Made by a program: the position numbers and the translations under genes | Shown here: piece after piece, positions 3,909 to 61,305 of the stretch | How positions within the stretch are numbered: the stretch's first letter is position 1 | Layout of the letters: each line of letters starts with the position of its first letter | The notes under the pieces: model-generated | Databases searched by the model: none | Seen by the model: the letters and a program-made list of their open reading frames with translations, nothing else | What the model was told of the DNA's origin: nothing | Assembly (NCBI GenBank): GCA_964507275.1 | Contig: CAZDPG010000001.1 | Coordinates: forward strand, 188,061-252,060 | Length of the DNA stretch: 64,000 nt | Reading direction: 5' to 3' | From: an uncultured Candidatus Saccharibacteria bacterium | GTDB taxonomy: Bacteria > Patescibacteriota > Minisyncoccia > Phycocordibacterales > Phycocordibacteraceae

Positions 3909-5147
3909 ATGACAGCTCTCAAGAAAGGAGAGTATTTGAAACGCGAAACCGCGACTAAGGAGGTCTATTATTATTTAGATGAAAAAGAGGGAGTGGACGT
4001 GCTCAGTCGTGAAGTATTTAAAAAGAAACCCCTTGAAATCCATTACCCTTTCGGGCGTCAAGGACAACCTAAGTATCCATTCGTTCGTAGCGTCGAATTC
4101 CACGGCATATCACCCAACATTATTGGCGGGGTGTTCACAGCAACAAATTTTGGCCTTGGTTTTACGAAGAATTTAAATCCTGCTATTTACCAACTTGAGC
4201 ACTTCCCGCGCGTTAACAAGATTCTGATTTCCAGAACACTTCTTTCAAAGATTGACGGGGATAAGGCTATCTTCAATACTGCCGACCTGGAAAGTATTTT
4301 CCAATGGATAAAACCTCTTAAAGACTCGCAATCTGCTGAGCTTAAGAAGGTGGCCAATAATGCTCTTGCAAAAGTATTTCCCAGCAAATTTAAAGCTCAA
4401 AGCGATAGGTATACCAAGGGATTATTGAGTTTGTTTATAAAAAATAAAGAAATAACCTCGGAGAAACTTTCCAAAGAAGATGTTGGCAATGCTCTTAAGC
4501 TAATTCCCGATCATATAACTGAAGAAAGTCTATTTTATAAAACGGAAGAAAAGATCAATTTTATACGATTAAGTGCTGTGAAGAAGAAGTTTAAGAAATT
4601 GGTTGACCAGAAAACTGATAGCAGACAGCTTGAAGAACGGTGCCAAAAATTCTTTGCCGAAAATAATTGGATATTCTCCAACATACTTTCTGTACCTGTG
4701 GCATTTATGGCAGGGAAAGCCTATGTAGGAGGAAAGACGATCGAGAACAAGTCTGGTAAAGAGGCAGATTTTCTTTACAAAAATAACTTGACACAAAATG
4801 TCTTTGTAATTGAAATTAAGACCCCAAAGAAGAAAATAATTGACGCAAAGAAGCCGTATCGAAAACCAGATGTTTTTCCCTTAGGTAAAGAATTAACTGG
4901 AGGACTTGTTCAACTTCTCGATCAACGAGATTCCTTACAGAAAGAATTCTTTACTCTTGCAAAAGGAGGCGAATTTAAATCGTTCAATCCTAAGGGTTTG
5001 CTAGTGATAGGACGAATCAAAGACTTATCCAAACAGCAACTAAAATCTTTTGAACTTTTTCGTAGTAATTTACGGGATATCGAAATAATTACCTATGATG
5101 AATTGTTGGAGCGGACTGATTTGATACTTAAACAATTTGTAAAATAG
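3909..5147 (+). CDS. Shedu-like anti-phage defence protein: variable N-terminal domain plus C-terminal DUF4263 (SduA-type) PD-(D/E)xK nuclease domain
   Basis: The C-terminal half follows the DUF4263 pattern: ...NNWIF... D287 (EADFLY) ... VIEIKTP (E302-x-K304) ... GLVQLLDQ ... LLVIGR ... IEIITYDELL at the C-terminus. AT-rich codon usage. No SD; a TATAGG sits just upstream of the ATG. Confidence 0.55.
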   Translation: MTALKKGEYLKRETATKEVYYYLDEKEGVDVLSREVFKKKPLEIHYPFGRQGQPKYPFVRSVEFHGISPNIIGGVFTATNFGLGFTKNLNPAIYQLEHFPRVNKILISRTLLSKIDGDKAIFNTADLESIFQWIKPLKDSQSAELKKVANNALAKVFPSKFKAQSDRYTKGLLSLFIKNKEITSEKLSKEDVGNALKLIPDHITEESLFYKTEEKINFIRLSAVKKKFKKLVDQKTDSRQLEERCQKFFAENNWIFSNILSVPVAFMAGKAYVGGKTIENKSGKEADFLYKNNLTQNVFVIEIKTPKKKIIDAKKPYRKPDVFPLGKELTGGLVQLLDQRDSLQKEFFTLAKGGEFKSFNPKGLLVIGRIKDLSKQQLKSFELFRSNLRDIEIITYDELLERTDLILKQFVK

Positions 5148-5609: not shown

Positions 5610-5852
5610 TCAAGGAATAAAATTGACTGCGTTTTGTGCCGCTTCTTCTTGTGCAGGTTGTATCTGCTCACCCCAGCAAACTGCAACATCCCAGCGAATC
5701 GGCCAATGGAAGATACAGCTTGTAACAAAACTCCACAAAAATACAACGATAAATGTTGATACAAAAACAACAGCGGCAAATACCCACTGAAATTTCTCAA
5801 AATCCGTCATTTTCTTAGAACGGCTATATCGATATTTTTTATATCTCGCCAT
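5610..5852 (-). CDS. Small predicted membrane protein (80 aa, one TM helix)
   Basis: Hydrophobic segment WVFAAVVFVSTFIVVFLWSFV. Starts 3 nt after the stop of the DUF3761 gene on the same strand. Confidence 0.3.
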   Translation of the reverse strand: MARYKKYRYSRSKKMTDFEKFQWVFAAVVFVSTFIVVFLWSFVTSCIFHWPIRWDVAVCWGEQIQPAQEEAAQNAVNFIP

Positions 5853-57007: not shown

Positions 57008-57964
57008 CTACGCAACACCAATAGCTTTTCGCACTTGCTCCATCTTCGCTTCGCTTATAGCGCGTGCTTCTATCTTCCCTTGCGTGAGGATGTCATCAAT
57101 GATAGCCGGATCGTCTCGGAGTGCTTCATACTTAGTGCGAATCGGAGCAAGGTAGCGATCGAGGTCTTCTATAAGCGTTTCTTTCAGCGCTTTATAGTTA
57201 CCCTGATGTTCTTCATAGAGAGGGTTTAGCGTTTGTTCGCTTCTGAAGAGGCGGTGTAAGCGGTACACGTTTTCAGGACGATTTCCGCTTGAATCGGTGA
57301 CGATGCTCATGACCGCTTTAGCAAGCTGATCGCGAGAAGCAAAGAGCGGAATGACATTCCCATAGCTCTTACTCATCTTCTGTCCGTCAGTACCAGGGAC
57401 AACAGCGACGTCCGGCATGATATAGGGCTCGGGGAGTTTGAAAATATCGGTCTTGTAGGTACGATTGAATTTCTCTGCGGTATCACGCGCGTACTCGATG
57501 TGCTGCTTCTGATCGGCACCTACCGGTACGATAGCGGCATCGTAGAGGAGGATATCGGCAGCCATGAGCATCGGATAGTTGAACGTACCGACGCTTAACT
57601 CCTTCCCTTTCGCTTCGGCATCTTTATAGGCGTGCGCGCGCATGAGGTACGGCATCGTCGTGATAGTGTCGAAAATCCAGCAGAGCTCGGTATGCGCCGG
57701 AACGTCTGATTGTTTGAAGAACACGACGTCCTCCGGGTCGAGTCCGATGGCAAGATACGCCATCACGAGTTCATGCGTGCGGCGCTTCATCTCCTCGGCA
57801 TCCTGCATCGTGTTCAGGGCGTGGTAATCAGCGACGAAGATGAACGGGCGGTACTTCCCCGTCTGCACAAGCTCAACGAACTGGCGCATCGCGCCGAAAT
57901 AGTTGCCGATGTGCAAATCGCCAGTCGGCTTCACGCCGGATACGAGAACAGGTCTGTCAGTCAT
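57008..57964 (-). CDS. trpS: Tryptophanyl-tRNA synthetase
   Basis: VSGVKPTGDLHIGNYFGA (HIGH) and KMSKSYGN (KMSKS). 318 aa. Confidence 0.9.
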   Translation of the reverse strand: MTDRPVLVSGVKPTGDLHIGNYFGAMRQFVELVQTGKYRPFIFVADYHALNTMQDAEEMKRRTHELVMAYLAIGLDPEDVVFFKQSDVPAHTELCWIFDTITTMPYLMRAHAYKDAEAKGKELSVGTFNYPMLMAADILLYDAAIVPVGADQKQHIEYARDTAEKFNRTYKTDIFKLPEPYIMPDVAVVPGTDGQKMSKSYGNVIPLFASRDQLAKAVMSIVTDSSGNRPENVYRLHRLFRSEQTLNPLYEEHQGNYKALKETLIEDLDRYLAPIRTKYEALRDDPAIIDDILTQGKIEARAISEAKMEQVRKAIGVA

Positions 57965-58139
57965 GGTTGTACGATACCATACCTTGACGACCCGTTGCAG
58001 AGAGGTATCGTTACTACAGAAAGGAGGGTTCCATCATGAACTCATTGCAGGTAGCGGCTCTCGAGGCCGCAGCGCAGTCAACCGTCACTGCCGCTCTTTT
58101 CTTCGGTGTATGCGCAGCGCTCGGTGTTGCCATGTTCTT

Positions 58140-59222
58140 CTACCCCTTTGGACTCCCCGCCCCGGCGGGGTTTTCCTTTGCGTAGTGCTCGCAGATTTTC
58201 TTCATAAGGCCCGGACCTTCGAATATCATGCCAGAGACGATTTGGATGAGGTCTGCTCCTGCATCGAACTTCGCCATCGCATCAATTGGCGAGAAGATGC
58301 CACCGGAGCCGATGATTGTGAATCGCGTGCCTGACTTCGCGCGCGTCTTGCGGATAAGCTCGTTCGAAAGTGTGAAGCAGGGAGTGCCGGAGAGCCCCCC
58401 GCGATATTCCTTCGGCGCGTCCTCAGGATGCTTCAAGTCTCCATACTTCTTATTCAGATTGCCGATGACGAGTCCCTCTACGCCGCTCCTGTCGGCGATG
58501 TCGAGGAGCTCGGCGAATTGCTCCCAGGGGATGTTGATTGGCATCTTGATGTACACAGGCTGAGTATGAGGTATCTCCATGAGTCGTGGCATGAGCCGTG
58601 CGAAGAGTTCTGGCTCGATGAATGTCTCGCCAGTGTAGGAATTAGGACACGAGATGTTTATCGTGAAGTAGTCGCCGGTATCTGCCGCGACTAATTTCTT
58701 GAATGACTCGACGTAATCGCGGATGCCTGCCTCGACATTGGCTGCGGCTTCCGGCTCGTTCGTGCGTGCTATCGAGATGCCGATCACGAAATCAGGCATG
58801 CGTGGCGTACGGGCAAGACGAGAGATGAGTGCATCGACGCCTTGATTGCGGAGCCCTTTATACACGATGAGGCTCTTGTTGCGGATGAGTCGCGTGAGTC
58901 GTGGGCGCGGGTTCCCTGCACAAGGGCGCGCAGTCGTCGATCCTATCTCTTCTCCGCCGAAAGCGAGCGATGGCAATATTTGAGTGAGCCTCCCATCCGA
59001 ATCAAATCCGGCCGAGAGCACTACCGGGGTGCGGTAGGTGATGCCATCGACTACTTTGCTGATATCAGGGCCATGATAGCCGTATAGGAGCGCGAAGAGT
59101 TTGCGCAGGAGTGCGAAGCGGCCTGCGAACTCGCCAATAGCGACGAACAAATCGTGCATCGTCTCTGGATTGCACTTGAACATGATCGGCTTGAGCACAG
59201 TGCGGTAAAGGAAATCAATCAT
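58140..59222 (-). CDS. pyrD: Dihydroorotate dehydrogenase (class 2, quinone-dependent)
   Basis: The N-terminus MIDFLYRTVLKPIMF...PETMHDL matches the class-2 N-terminal extension. GFDSDG and NISCPNS motifs. The track ORF's upstream extension (TTG at 59345) overlaps tRNA-Tyr and is rejected. Confidence 0.8.
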   Translation of the reverse strand: MIDFLYRTVLKPIMFKCNPETMHDLFVAIGEFAGRFALLRKLFALLYGYHGPDISKVVDGITYRTPVVLSAGFDSDGRLTQILPSLAFGGEEIGSTTARPCAGNPRPRLTRLIRNKSLIVYKGLRNQGVDALISRLARTPRMPDFVIGISIARTNEPEAAANVEAGIRDYVESFKKLVAADTGDYFTINISCPNSYTGETFIEPELFARLMPRLMEIPHTQPVYIKMPINIPWEQFAELLDIADRSGVEGLVIGNLNKKYGDLKHPEDAPKEYRGGLSGTPCFTLSNELIRKTRAKSGTRFTIIGSGGIFSPIDAMAKFDAGADLIQIVSGMIFEGPGLMKKICEHYAKENPAGAGSPKG

Positions 59223-59280
59223 GCGTATGAGTATACGATACTCCACGCAAGATTCCCGAAAATGGGACTTGTCTCTTGTA

Positions 59281-59367
59281 TGGTGCGCCGGGAAGGATTC
59301 GAACCTTCGTAGGACTATGTCCGCGAGATTTACAGTCTCGAGCAATTGACCGCTCTGCCACCGACGC
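59281..59367 (-). tRNA. tRNA-Tyr (anticodon GUA), long variable arm, CCA encoded
   Basis: Manual fold: GCGTCGG acceptor. Anticodon arm CGAGA-CUGUAAA-UCUCG. Variable arm GGAC-aua-GUCC. T-arm GAAGG-TTCGAAT-CCTTC. 3' CCGGCGC-A-CCA. Coordinates +/-1. Confidence 0.75.
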
Positions 59368-59994
59368 TCATTTTGTCAAGTCATGGCTGTACTCCTCTAT
59401 CCACGTGAGTATTTGCCTTAATAACTTTGTATCACAATACACTATATGAACAAGACCGTGAAGCATTCGTGGGCCCCGCGGCCCTGGGCTTGCAGCTTTC
59501 TTTACGTACGGTTTGATGAACTGTTGTTCTGGAATAGAGAGCAATTGGCTCCAATAACGAGTAAGGGCTTTAATATCTTGCCCTTCATAACAATACAAAT
59601 GCCCGCGAACCCTCTTCTCATCGACACGGCAGATTTCGGATAGAAAACGTCTGAATATGAGTGCCATCTTCGGATCAGAGTTCGCGAAGTCTATGGAATG
59701 GGCGCCTACTTTGTATCCCTCCGCCCAATACAGCATGATAGCTGCTTCTTTTAGGCGTTCTTCAATTTTCGACAGCTTGGTTTTTAGATTATAGGAAAGT
59801 GGTTTAGCTTCGAAACGAATACTGTTTGTCTCCTGTGCGGAGCGGCGAGGAACATCGAGACTTCGAAGTGTGTAATAAGCCGCATGGATACTAACACCGA
59901 AATGATCCGCTACTTGCTGCGCACTTAGTCCGGTCCGATACAGGCGGGCGGCCTCTTGTTGTTGTTTCGGTGAAAGAGCGGCTACATTAGGCAT
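59368..59994 (-). CDS. AT-rich HTH-domain DNA-binding protein (resolvase/sigma70-region-4-like N-terminal HTH plus uncharacterised C-terminal domain)
   Basis: The N-terminus LSPKQQQEAARLYRTGLSAQQVADHFGVSIHAAYYTLR is a classic HTH. The ~150-aa C-terminal domain has a weak LAGLIDADG-like stretch (AIMLYWAEGYKVG). Low GC. Sits between tRNA-Tyr and tyrS. Confidence 0.5.
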   Translation of the reverse strand: MPNVAALSPKQQQEAARLYRTGLSAQQVADHFGVSIHAAYYTLRSLDVPRRSAQETNSIRFEAKPLSYNLKTKLSKIEERLKEAAIMLYWAEGYKVGAHSIDFANSDPKMALIFRRFLSEICRVDEKRVRGHLYCYEGQDIKALTRYWSQLLSIPEQQFIKPYVKKAASPGPRGPRMLHGLVHIVYCDTKLLRQILTWIEEYSHDLTK

Positions 59995-60051
59995 GCTTTT
60001 ATTATCTCAACCCAGAAGTTGAGAGTCAAACGGACTTATACACAGAAATGT

Positions 60052-61305
60052 TTACTTTAGTACAAGAATCAGTACGCCCTGCTTGCCCTTGCGTACGAGC
60101 GCATGACCACCACTGAGATCTCCTGCAAAGAGTTTCTGGTCGGGATCGGTTATCGGAAAGCCGGAGAGTGTAATCCCCTTCCCTTCGATGAGTCTCCGCG
60201 CATCACTCTTGCTCGAGGCGAGACCTCCCGTGACGAGTATCTCAGCAAGTGATGCACCGCCTTCCATATCTTTCTTCGAGAGTGTTACCGAAGGTGCTTC
60301 AGCAAGTGCGACTTGGCGTGCTTCACGCGAGAGCTCACCGAACGGCGTATCGCCGAAGAGTGCGTCGGATGTCGCTGCGGCCTGAGCAGTCGCGGCTGGG
60401 CCGTGCACTATCTCGGTCACGAGGCGCGCAAGCGTCTCCTGTGCCTGACGCTCTCCAGGGTTGCGATGATGGAGCTCCATGAGCGCACTTATCTCGCTAA
60501 GCGGGAGGAACGTGTAGACCTTGAGATAGTTCTCTATGTTTACATCCGGGAGGTTAATCCAGAATTGATAGAAGCGAAACGGAGATGTCTTCTCCGCATC
60601 GAGCCAGACAGCATTCCCCTCGCTCTTGCCGAATTTCTTGCCAGTAGCATCGGTGACGAGCGGCATACCGAGCGCATACACCTGCTTACCCAAACGCTTA
60701 TGGATGAGATCGACGCCAGAAAGAATGTTCGTCCACTGATCAGAGCCGCCGATCTGGAGATCGACACCGTATTTATCATGCAATACGAAATAATCGAAAC
60801 CCTGCAAGAGAGCATAGGTGAACTCGGTATAGGAGATGCTATCGTCAGGCGTTTCAAGACGGCGTTTGATCACTTCGCGCTTCACGAGGTCGTTCACAGT
60901 GAAATACTTTCCGACATCTCGCAGGAACGGGATAAGCGAAACCTTCATGAGCCAGTCGGCATTATCGACCATTCTGAATGACGTCCTGCCCAAAATATCC
61001 TTCAATTGAGACTTGAGCGCGCGCGTGTTTGCGGCGACGAGCTTCTCCGTGAGCATCGGGCGCTCGCCTTTCTCCTTCGGATCGCCAATCATGCCAGTGC
61101 CGCCGCCCACGAGGAAGATGAGTTTGTGTCCCGCATCACCCAGGCGCTTCATGAGGAGCACCCACGCGAGGTGTCCGACATGGAGCGAGTCAGCGGTCGG
61201 GTCAGTACCGATATAGACGGTACGCTGCTCGGCGAGGATTTTCTCCGGTTCTGCCGACGAGAGTTCTATCAGCCCGCGCGCTTTCAGTTCTTCAGCGAGA
61301 GTCAT
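60052..61305 (-). CDS. tyrS: Tyrosyl-tRNA synthetase (with C-terminal S4 domain)
   Basis: ...YIGTDPTADSLHVGHL (HIGH) and KFGKSEGN (KMSKS). Start chosen at MTLAEELKARGLI (the track ORF begins 60 nt earlier). Confidence 0.85.
   Translation of the reverse strand: MTLAEELKARGLIELSSAEPEKILAEQRTVYIGTDPTADSLHVGHLAWVLLMKRLGDAGHKLIFLVGGGTGMIGDPKEKGERPMLTEKLVAANTRALKSQLKDILGRTSFRMVDNADWLMKVSLIPFLRDVGKYFTVNDLVKREVIKRRLETPDDSISYTEFTYALLQGFDYFVLHDKYGVDLQIGGSDQWTNILSGVDLIHKRLGKQVYALGMPLVTDATGKKFGKSEGNAVWLDAEKTSPFRFYQFWINLPDVNIENYLKVYTFLPLSEISALMELHHRNPGERQAQETLARLVTEIVHGPAATAQAAATSDALFGDTPFGELSREARQVALAEAPSVTLSKKDMEGGASLAEILVTGGLASSKSDARRLIEGKGITLSGFPITDPDQKLFAGDLSGGHALVRKGKQGVLILVLK

Follow-up and report, generated by a model that had tools for sequence, protein, structure and literature searches.

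Introduction

Why should a protein-coding gene fill the space between a tRNA gene and the gene of its cognate synthetase, with its stop codon touching the tRNA? The question is raised by a locus of an uncultured Candidatus Saccharibacteria bacterium (Phycocordibacteraceae; contig CAZDPG010000001.1, positions 188,061 to 252,060). The whole analysed stretch of 64,000 nucleotides (nt) is termed the window, and its own numbering is used throughout. Here an open reading frame (ORF), hereafter gene X, lies between tyrS and tRNA-Tyr. An earlier inspection of the letters, the sequence-only reading, had described an AT-rich helix-turn-helix (HTH) gene wedged between the two. Two origins had been proposed there: a relic of a mobile element (for instance a homing endonuclease or recombination directionality factor), and a regulator devoted to the tRNA-Tyr/tyrS/pyrD neighbourhood. 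Our preferred interpretation, to which we assign a probability of about 60%, is an accessory cassette of approximately 690 bp that was inserted after tyrS, directly in front of base +1 of tRNA-Tyr. It would be a free-standing, site-specific cassette of the homing-endonuclease type that resides in the pre-tRNA leader and encodes a putative nuclease.

All three genes are read from the minus strand. Gene X (59368-59994) encodes 208 amino acids (aa), from an ATG at 59994 to a TGA at 59370-59368. tRNA-Tyr(GUA) (59281-59367) is 87 nt long, with a long variable arm and no intron, and was called by ARAGORN (anticodon GTA) and by Rfam (RF00005, 56 bits). On the other side, tyrS (60052-61305; 417 aa; Pfam tRNA-synt_1b) borders the insertion on the left, an arrangement restricted to this clade. 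The earlier description of the arrangement was accurate, including the statement that the stop of the gene abuts the tRNA: the TGA meets base +1 (59367) with a gap of 0 nt. The GC content of gene X is 46.6%, compared with a mean of 53.7% (standard deviation 4.6) for segments of equal size, 8% of which are equally low; the dip is genuine but modest and unremarkable. Neither a second copy of gene X nor, with Rfam, a group I intron was found in the 64-kb window.

Linkage of the Gene Family to tRNA Genes

Gene X has 234 close homologues, and 1,723 clusters were matched at E<=1e-10 when 1.8 billion cluster representatives were searched with a profile. A scan with one genome per species located relatives in 277 species. 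Most of these are Patescibacteria, drawn from many classes, and a few records are labelled Omnitrophota or Planctomycetia. No description of the family or of its location in tRNA leaders was found in the literature.

Neighbourhoods were counted in 80 retrieved loci, which are labelled with L-numbers (L001, L005 and so on). An intron-less tRNA-Tyr(GTA) is present on the same strand in 66 of the 80, and in 65 of these 66 its first base falls in the range from 91 nt before to 15 nt after the ORF's last base. Overall, gene and tRNA-Tyr are no more than a few nt apart, and usually overlap, in about 73 of 80 related species. Because nearly all homologous loci repeat this junction, the zero-gap contact in the window is not a local accident. 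Overlap is common: 44 of the 66 ORFs run into the tRNA. Twenty-seven ORFs (e.g., L005, L011-L017, L019-L023) have no stop codon of their own and end at the UAA in the anticodon loop of tRNA-Tyr (cuGUAAa), 37-39 nt inside the tRNA, so that cleavage by RNase P would leave a non-stop mRNA. The overlap also explains the homologues of 214-218 aa ending ECVGG..VN..L, since the 9-12-residue tail of these database proteins is translated tRNA.

In five further loci, the tRNA-Tyr just 3' of the gene carries a group I intron between nt 35 and 36 (CTGT|...G|AAA; L028, approximately 5636-5827; L035, 5604-5822; L057, 5600-5817; L059, 5582-5835; L062, 4634-4887). The intron of L028 scores below the Rfam gathering threshold, and in all five loci the tRNA-Tyr is missed by ARAGORN.

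Other members are attached to other tRNAs. A monophyletic group of longer proteins occupies the spacer between tRNA-Tyr and tRNA-Thr(GGT), and members in two loci abut tRNA-Gly(GCC). A paralogue family of 24-27% identity, composed of an HTH and the pattern ..LIYWCEG.K..FTNSDP.., ends within or against tRNA-Trp(CCA), with an overlap of approximately 15 nt. Examples on the minus strand are L094 1274-1993, L137 406-1080 and L187 765-1484, with tRNA-Tyr on the plus strand (these loci are stored the opposite way), and L074 1011-1676 in the locus as stored. L074 possesses both Tyr-type and Trp-type copies, and its tRNA-Trp is called on the opposite strand.

The upstream position of tyrS is limited to the window's own clade (L005-L023, L206-L208). 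The tRNA junction is retained while every other neighbour changes, and no locus has a cassette of more than one gene. Gene X thus travels with the tRNA, not with tyrS.

Empty Sites and Distribution

Metagenome contigs were queried with the 5' half of the same-type tRNA-Tyr, and gene X was present in 0 of the 120 tRNA-Tyr loci returned, 107 of which have at least 300 nt of upstream sequence. In 14 empty loci tyrS is followed by tRNA-Tyr after 30-56 nt. Their TyrS proteins are up to 79% identical to that of the window, as close to it as the TyrS of many carriers. Direct adjacency of tyrS and tRNA-Tyr in relatives, raised by the sequence-only reading as a point for comparison, therefore exists in these 14 loci, but not among the nearest relatives, all of which carry the gene. 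The three nearest have it at the same place, with gene X proteins 82-87.5% and TyrS 80-83% identical to those of the window. High-identity orthologues at the same locus, named earlier as a sign against mobility, are confined to these nearest relatives and fail beyond them.

These 14 empty loci share one native promoter, 31 nt long in relatives with TyrS up to 79% identical. Its -35 element, TTGAAA, is taken from the last tyrS codons (GTT TTG AAA TAA), and its -10 element, TATAGT or TATACT, stands 7-9 nt from tRNA base +1, so that the synthetase gene and its cognate tRNA are physically interlocked. Loci with this promoter include L159, L169, L182, L161, L196 and L125, to be compared with window positions 60046-60060. 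In carriers the same TyrS end (LVLK*) is written CTA AAG TAA and is followed by the cassette motif and promoter, the filled and empty alleles differing only at the codon level at the 3' end of tyrS. Presence or absence at one precise site, with intact empty alleles, is what is expected of a free-standing endonuclease gene. Since uniform empty and uniform filled structures are scattered over the same tree, the simplest explanation would be an ancestral empty state with repeated entry of the cassette at one site. An origin of the empty sites by deletion is disfavoured, because independent deletions are not expected to recreate the same promoter each time.

The distribution was evaluated on a neighbour-joining tree of TyrS, a single protein marker, for 19 carriers and 12 non-carriers. 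The Fitch parsimony score for presence and absence was 10 (bootstrap 8-11), compared with a mean of 9.8 for shuffled labels. Pairwise identities of gene X and TyrS proteins were weakly correlated (r=0.39), and in some pairs TyrS was 77-80% identical with gene X proteins at only 56-63%. On this one-marker tree of mixed data sources, the distribution is incongruent with host phylogeny.

Gene X is under strong purifying selection. With dS saturated, the ratio of nonsynonymous to synonymous divergence (dN/dS) is 0.05-0.09 for gene X, compared with 0.09-0.14 for tyrS. All 20 of 20 contigs of the species carry the gene with an identical protein; it is fixed, and no presence/absence polymorphism was seen among them. 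An intact ORF, this constraint, fixation and a family of more than 1,700 clusters do not agree with the term relic used earlier.

Domains of the Protein

The N-terminal part of the protein (aa 6-46; 59857-59979, minus strand) is a three-helix HTH of the resolvase/Tc3/sigma region 4 type. The resolvase/sigma-type HTH noticed before was seen again, only as sub-threshold Pfam matches (HTH_23, E=7e-5; HTH_7, E=9e-4), and the approximately 150 remaining residues match nothing. AlphaFold2, run with a 48-sequence alignment, gave a model with a mean confidence (pLDDT) of 90 over the full length and 88 for residues 70-208. In this model the HTH is followed by a conserved, extended linker (RR-x5-N-x-IRF-x-KPLSY) and by an alpha/beta domain (aa 76-207; 59374-59769, minus strand), which appears to combine a LAGLIDADG-like core with an extra beta-beta-alpha extension. 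The extension has invariant residues of its own, and the conserved face of the beta-sheet is rich in Y, K and H.

The stretch AAIMLYWAEG is located at the C-terminal end of the helix formed by residues 76-92, and within it the LYWAEGYK motif (aa 88-95; 59710-59733, minus strand) had been described as faintly LAGLIDADG-like. Across 81 homologues, with identities as low as 31%, no variation is seen at L88, Y89, E92, G93, N105, W148, F159, G180 and H183. E92-G93 is also kept in the tRNA-Trp paralogues, where it reads CEG, and the pattern CEG-K ... F-x-NSDP is retained in yet more distant paralogues. This persistence argues for a retained active site over a mere scaffold, and E92 is a candidate catalytic acid.

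When the family domain profile was aligned with I-DmoI by HHalign, using an I-DmoI sequence verified against 1b24, MLYWAEGYK paired with GLYVAEGDK at E=1.3e-3 and an HH probability of only 18%. E92 falls on E117, a catalytic residue of I-DmoI. A helix ending in a conserved acid followed by glycine, as in LAGLIDADG proteins, is thus present. At the positions of the LAGLIDADG dimer interface, M87 and W90 are found instead of small residues. When these features are weighed against the negative profile and Foldseek searches (see below), the odds that the C-terminal domain is LAGLIDADG-like are roughly two in three.

Promoter and Predicted Transcript

The cassette contains its own promoter (60001-60029, minus strand), with a -35 element TTGACT at 60029-60024, a 17-nt spacer and a -10 element GATAAT at 60006-60001. 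It has 10 of 12 consensus matches and a TG-extended -10 and is the sole sigma70-type match in 59150-60250. The consensus scan of this interval found no internal promoter for the tRNA inside the ORF. As the -10 element ends only 6 nt before the ATG, the transcription start is predicted at or near 59994, and the mRNA of gene X is probably leaderless. In 34 of 81 loci a promoter with at least 9 of 12 consensus matches stands in the same place, its end separated from the start codon by 4-9 nt and in most cases by exactly 6 nt. Only 3 of the 81 show a Shine-Dalgarno-like sequence.

A left-end motif, CTGTGTATAAGT (60034-60045, minus strand), is positioned 4-5 nt 5' of the -35 element and travels with the cassette; its exact sequence occurs once in the window. 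Its consensus TGTG(T/C)A(T/C)AAGT is found about 50 nt (43-51) 5' of the ATG in 22 loci, in several clades of gene X.

The same left end, read as CTGT/GTATAAGT, resembles the exon/intron junctions CTGT/GTAAAAC and CTGT/GTAGAAC of intron-bearing tRNA-Tyr (L059/L062, L035, L057). The chance level of this likeness is about 1%, and it may reflect an intron-borne ancestry or be a coincidence.

In L052 (approximately 4850-4900) and L054 (approximately 4870-4915), an inverted 3' half of tRNA-Tyr, from the 3' strand of the anticodon stem to the acceptor end, directly adjoins the cassette on its left, exactly at the CTGTGCA(C/T)AA motif. It may be a scar of illegitimate integration.

Proposed Mechanism and Points Against It

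For a homing-endonuclease-type cassette, the following sequence of events is proposed. One transcript would start at the ATG as a leaderless mRNA and continue into pre-tRNA-Tyr, and the cut of RNase P at +1 would part the mRNA from the tRNA. The protein would be anchored to DNA through the HTH and linker, and a divergent single LAGLIDADG-type domain (E92-G93), probably dimeric, would cut tRNA-Tyr loci that lack the cassette. In the repair of the break, the conserved tRNA gene would serve as homology on the right, and the cassette would be copied in, which corresponds to free-standing or intron-less homing. With the native promoter replaced, the cassette promoter is left as the sole local promoter of tRNA-Tyr. 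Simple deletion would thereby become costly, and the cassette would persist.

Several observations weigh against this proposal. Whether the query was a single sequence, a set of 48 members, remote representatives or a profile of the domain alone, searches gave HTH matches only: the C-terminal domain matched no LAGLIDADG family, including LAGLIDADG_1/2/3 and related profiles, and no solved structure (Pfam, NCBIfam, PHROGs, PDB by phmmer and hmmsearch). Foldseek against the PDB returned nothing at E<=0.001, the best matches being OmpA-like with a template-modelling score of about 0.4. The earlier suggestion of a LAGLIDADG-like stretch holds for the motif, which is in register with that of I-DmoI and has an invariant E92-G93, but has no counterpart in a profile or Foldseek match.

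In addition, no recent homing event was caught, the closest pair of carrier and non-carrier being only about 75% identical in tyrS DNA; neither recent homing nor co-conversion tracts between near-identical genomes were found. Genome representatives supplied the carriers and metagenome contigs the non-carriers, which constitutes a sampling bias. At some sites, such as wells of the Hainich aquifer (L006, L105, L103), both kinds are found together. In the nearest sub-clade, gene X has co-diverged with tyrS through saturated dS under strong constraint, and the gene is fixed in the species. This persistence exceeds what the classical cycle of gain, decay and loss predicts. With a constraint so strong and lasting, the cassette may also serve the host or act in an addictive way.

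The target is a further difficulty. No cleavage target was found: upstream of empty tRNA-Tyr genes nothing is conserved except an A/T bias at -1 to -3. The tRNA-Tyr alleles of carriers and of cassette-free loci are alike in the anticodon arm (Fisher p=1, 105 empty alleles), which leaves unexplained how a carrier would avoid cutting itself. Any recognition must consequently lie in the tRNA gene itself. An immunity substitution had been considered in the subset of loci with tyrS context, where G30G31/C39C40 occurred in 14 of 16 empty and 4 of 20 filled alleles; the difference vanished with 105 empty alleles.

On balance, the homing-endonuclease part of the sequence-only reading is favoured by the LAGLIDADG-like motif, the probably LAGLIDADG-like fold, the empty sites, the interleaving of presence and absence and the tRNA-specific sub-families; its relic part is not.

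A wider proposal can be put forward tentatively, and we regard it as doubtful in its entirety. According to it, HTH plus LAGLIDADG-like proteins would form an unrecognised class of tRNA-gene-specific homing endonucleases in pre-tRNA leaders and inter-tRNA spacers. Their leaderless mRNAs would be freed by tRNA-processing enzymes and would in many cases take their stop from the anticodon loop. The same proteins would be the trans-acting mobility factor of ORF-less 35/36 group I introns in Patescibacteria tRNAs, and perhaps of tRNA-allele exchange.

Alternative Explanations

The alternative that survives best, unlikely as it is, assumes a domesticated LAGLIDADG plus HTH DNA-binding protein, WhiA-like in principle, which activates or represses the cassette promoter and controls the supply of tRNA-Tyr. 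It would be kept by host-level selection, and its patchiness would result from lineage-specific replacement. Strong purifying selection, long co-divergence with tyrS and fixation in the species agree with such a role, and the protein may autoregulate the cassette promoter. The conserved motif about 50 nt 5' of the ATG lies just upstream of the -35 element, where activators bind, and an inverted repeat (TCTCAAC-N6-GTTGAGA; 60005-60024) is located within the promoter spacer. WhiA is an established precedent for domestication of an endonuclease (PMC3240954, PMC3384342).

Nevertheless, the gene is absent from 107 of 107 sampled same-type loci, and sister lineages manage with the simple native promoter, so that it is dispensable. 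The motif is found in only 22-23 of 81 loci, and the recognition helix of the HTH shows no pattern of covariation with its presence. The inverted repeat had been reported as a stem-loop at the 5' boundary of the gene. It does exist, but it lies in the promoter spacer, and its arms (TCTCAA/TTGAGA) survive only in five close relatives (L006, L008, L009, L018, L206) with loops of 5-8 nt. The stem-loop is therefore not a family feature, and with its variable loop and no U-tract it is neither a family-wide operator nor a terminator. The catalytic-type acid is invariant in gene X, whereas WhiA has lost its own, and sub-families at four different tRNAs are left unexplained. The regulator of the tRNA-Tyr/tyrS/pyrD neighbourhood suggested earlier finds no support as a primary role, since only one clade links the gene with tyrS and pyrD and sister lineages do without it.

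A less probable alternative is an RNA-directed, maturase-like role, in which the protein binds its own co-transcript or pre-tRNA and aids the folding or processing of the long leader, the splicing of the 35/36 intron or the coupling of translation to RNase P. LAGLIDADG maturases exist, the gene is always physically fused to a tRNA transcript, and 44 of 66 ORFs extend into the tRNA, with 27 ending at the anticodon-loop UAA. The five loci with an intron-containing tRNA-Tyr and the Y/K/H-rich face of the beta-sheet are compatible with this role as well. However, tRNA-Tyr is intron-less in the window and in most carriers, with no reduction in the constraint on the protein, and relatives process tRNA-Tyr in its absence. 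The resolvase/Tc3-type HTH argues for binding of double-stranded DNA.

It is very improbable that gene X is an ordinary lineage-specific hypothetical gene, neither mobile nor functionally linked to the tRNA, whose position merely reflects a compact genome. Genomes of the candidate phyla radiation (CPR) are gene-dense, and in the nearest clade gene X is about as similar to its orthologues as the neighbouring housekeeping genes are to theirs. This explanation is contradicted by a tRNA junction kept while all other neighbours change, by a conserved promoter brought into unrelated contexts, by empty sites of uniform native structure and by a presence without phylogenetic signal on the TyrS tree.

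Although tRNA genes are classical attachment (att) sites and gene X encodes a small protein with an HTH, a remnant of a phage or integrative element, e.g., an excisionase or the recombination directionality factor suggested earlier, can be dismissed as highly implausible, given the insertion at the 5' end of the tRNA and not its 3' end, a single-gene cassette in every locus, no integrase, duplicated tRNA 3' segment, att repeat or other element gene found nearby, no phage or viral homologues found, and no terminal inverted repeats above chance. Signs of an insertion sequence or transposon (terminal inverted repeats, target-site duplication, transposase fold) were likewise not found, an apparent CATTT..TGT..AAGTC match in 22 loci being no better than shuffled controls.

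Other Features of the Loci

Downstream of tRNA-Tyr, the window contains a dihydroorotate dehydrogenase gene of the pyrD type (58140-59222) and a trpS-like gene. In 57008-61305, three aminoacyl-tRNA synthetase genes lie on one strand around tRNA-Tyr and pyrD, namely tyrS, the trpS-like gene and, just downstream according to L001, aspS; dnaK and dnaJ precede this cluster. The spacer that separates tRNA-Tyr from pyrD contains a 5-bp palindromic hairpin, TCCCGAAAATGGGA (59254-59267), which has no U-tract on the coding (minus) strand.

In L083 (4551-4935), a tRNA-Phe(GAA) with an anticodon-loop group I intron is situated between tRNA-Val and a family member of 31% identity, which in turn precedes tRNA-Gly(GCC). 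The tRNA-Tyr genes of L052, L054, L064 and L067-L070 have G for A at position 37 (CTGTAGA); these loci represent one or two clades of the gene family.

Significance

If the homing-endonuclease reading is correct, Patescibacteria tolerate a selfish nuclease cassette in control of transcribing an essential, probably single-copy tRNA gene, and a new route is revealed by which mobile DNA becomes hard to lose. An enzyme family of more than 1,700 clusters would have been found that lacks a Pfam model, and its Tyr, Thr, Gly and Trp sub-families would offer new scaffolds of interest to enzyme engineering. From the overlap of ORF and tRNA one would predict that RNase P cleavage competes, in an unusual way, with the termination of translation, and the overlap would account for mis-annotated, tRNA-encoded protein tails. 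A testable answer would also be available to the question of how tRNA group I introns without endonucleases spread in the phylum (PMC13011429).

Comparison With Known Systems

Among known proteins, there is a close likeness to single-motif LAGLIDADG enzymes (I-CreI, I-CeuI, I-MsoI and I-ShaI of CPR rRNA insertions) and to the second domain of I-DmoI, with which gene X shares a long helix ending x-A-E-G followed by a beta-sheet. The I-DmoI motif register, the invariant terminal acid and the sporadic presence among relatives are also held in common. Active single-domain LAGLIDADG enzymes are known from CPR rRNA insertions (PMC11270868). In contrast to these enzymes, gene X has no detectable sequence homology in Pfam or the PDB and is negative in Foldseek, adds an N-terminal HTH and the beta-beta-alpha extension with its own invariant residues, and is free-standing rather than located in an intron or intein. 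The residues of its beta-sheet vary unusually little between sub-families, and bulky M87 and W90 replace the usual glycines of the dimer interface.

WhiA, which was among the top structural matches, consists of two degenerate LAGLIDADG domains and a C-terminal HTH and has lost its catalytic acids. To our knowledge, it belongs to the core genes conserved in all Gram-positive bacteria. Gene X shares with WhiA/DUF199 a LAGLIDADG-type scaffold, a small HTH and strong constraint. Unlike WhiA, it has one such domain, an N-terminal HTH, an invariant E-G, a patchy distribution and linkage to tRNA, and no Pfam WhiA match was obtained.

I-TevI binds its own promoter region and, like gene X, is bipartite, with a small HTH anchor, an extended linker and a separate catalytic-type domain. 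The order of domains is reversed in gene X, and the catalytic fold is another, I-TevI being an intron-encoded GIY-YIG enzyme.

Free-standing endonuclease genes in tRNA regions have been described in phages, e.g., T4 SegB, a GIY-YIG enzyme (PMC2330249). Similar to SegB and mobE, gene X is a stand-alone gene of endonuclease type in a tRNA region, has its own promoter, is inherited with flanking DNA and is present or absent among relatives. Those enzymes are GIY-YIG or HNH proteins of phages, whereas gene X is LAGLIDADG-like and resides in bacterial chromosomes. It is placed exactly in the pre-tRNA leader and overlaps the tRNA, its mRNA is predicted to be leaderless, and the tRNA promoter has been replaced.

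In collaborative homing, neighbouring endonucleases mobilise introns without ORFs, as for mobE with I-TevIII (PMC2790892) and F-CphI (PMC6083498). A 2026 survey reported 35/36 group I introns in Patescibacteria tRNAs, including tRNA-Tyr, most of them without endonuclease genes, which were searched for within introns only (PMC13011429). The position of the gene directly upstream of an ORF-less 35/36-intron tRNA-Tyr in L028, L035, L057, L059 and L062, i.e., in 5 of 80 related loci, is as expected for an intron-mobilising endonuclease. However, the window's tRNA-Tyr and those of about 90% of carriers are intron-less, and no association of the cassette with anticodon-arm sequence was found. Taken together, gene X behaves as a free-standing homing endonuclease gene but differs from the known ones in protein architecture, host and genomic niche.

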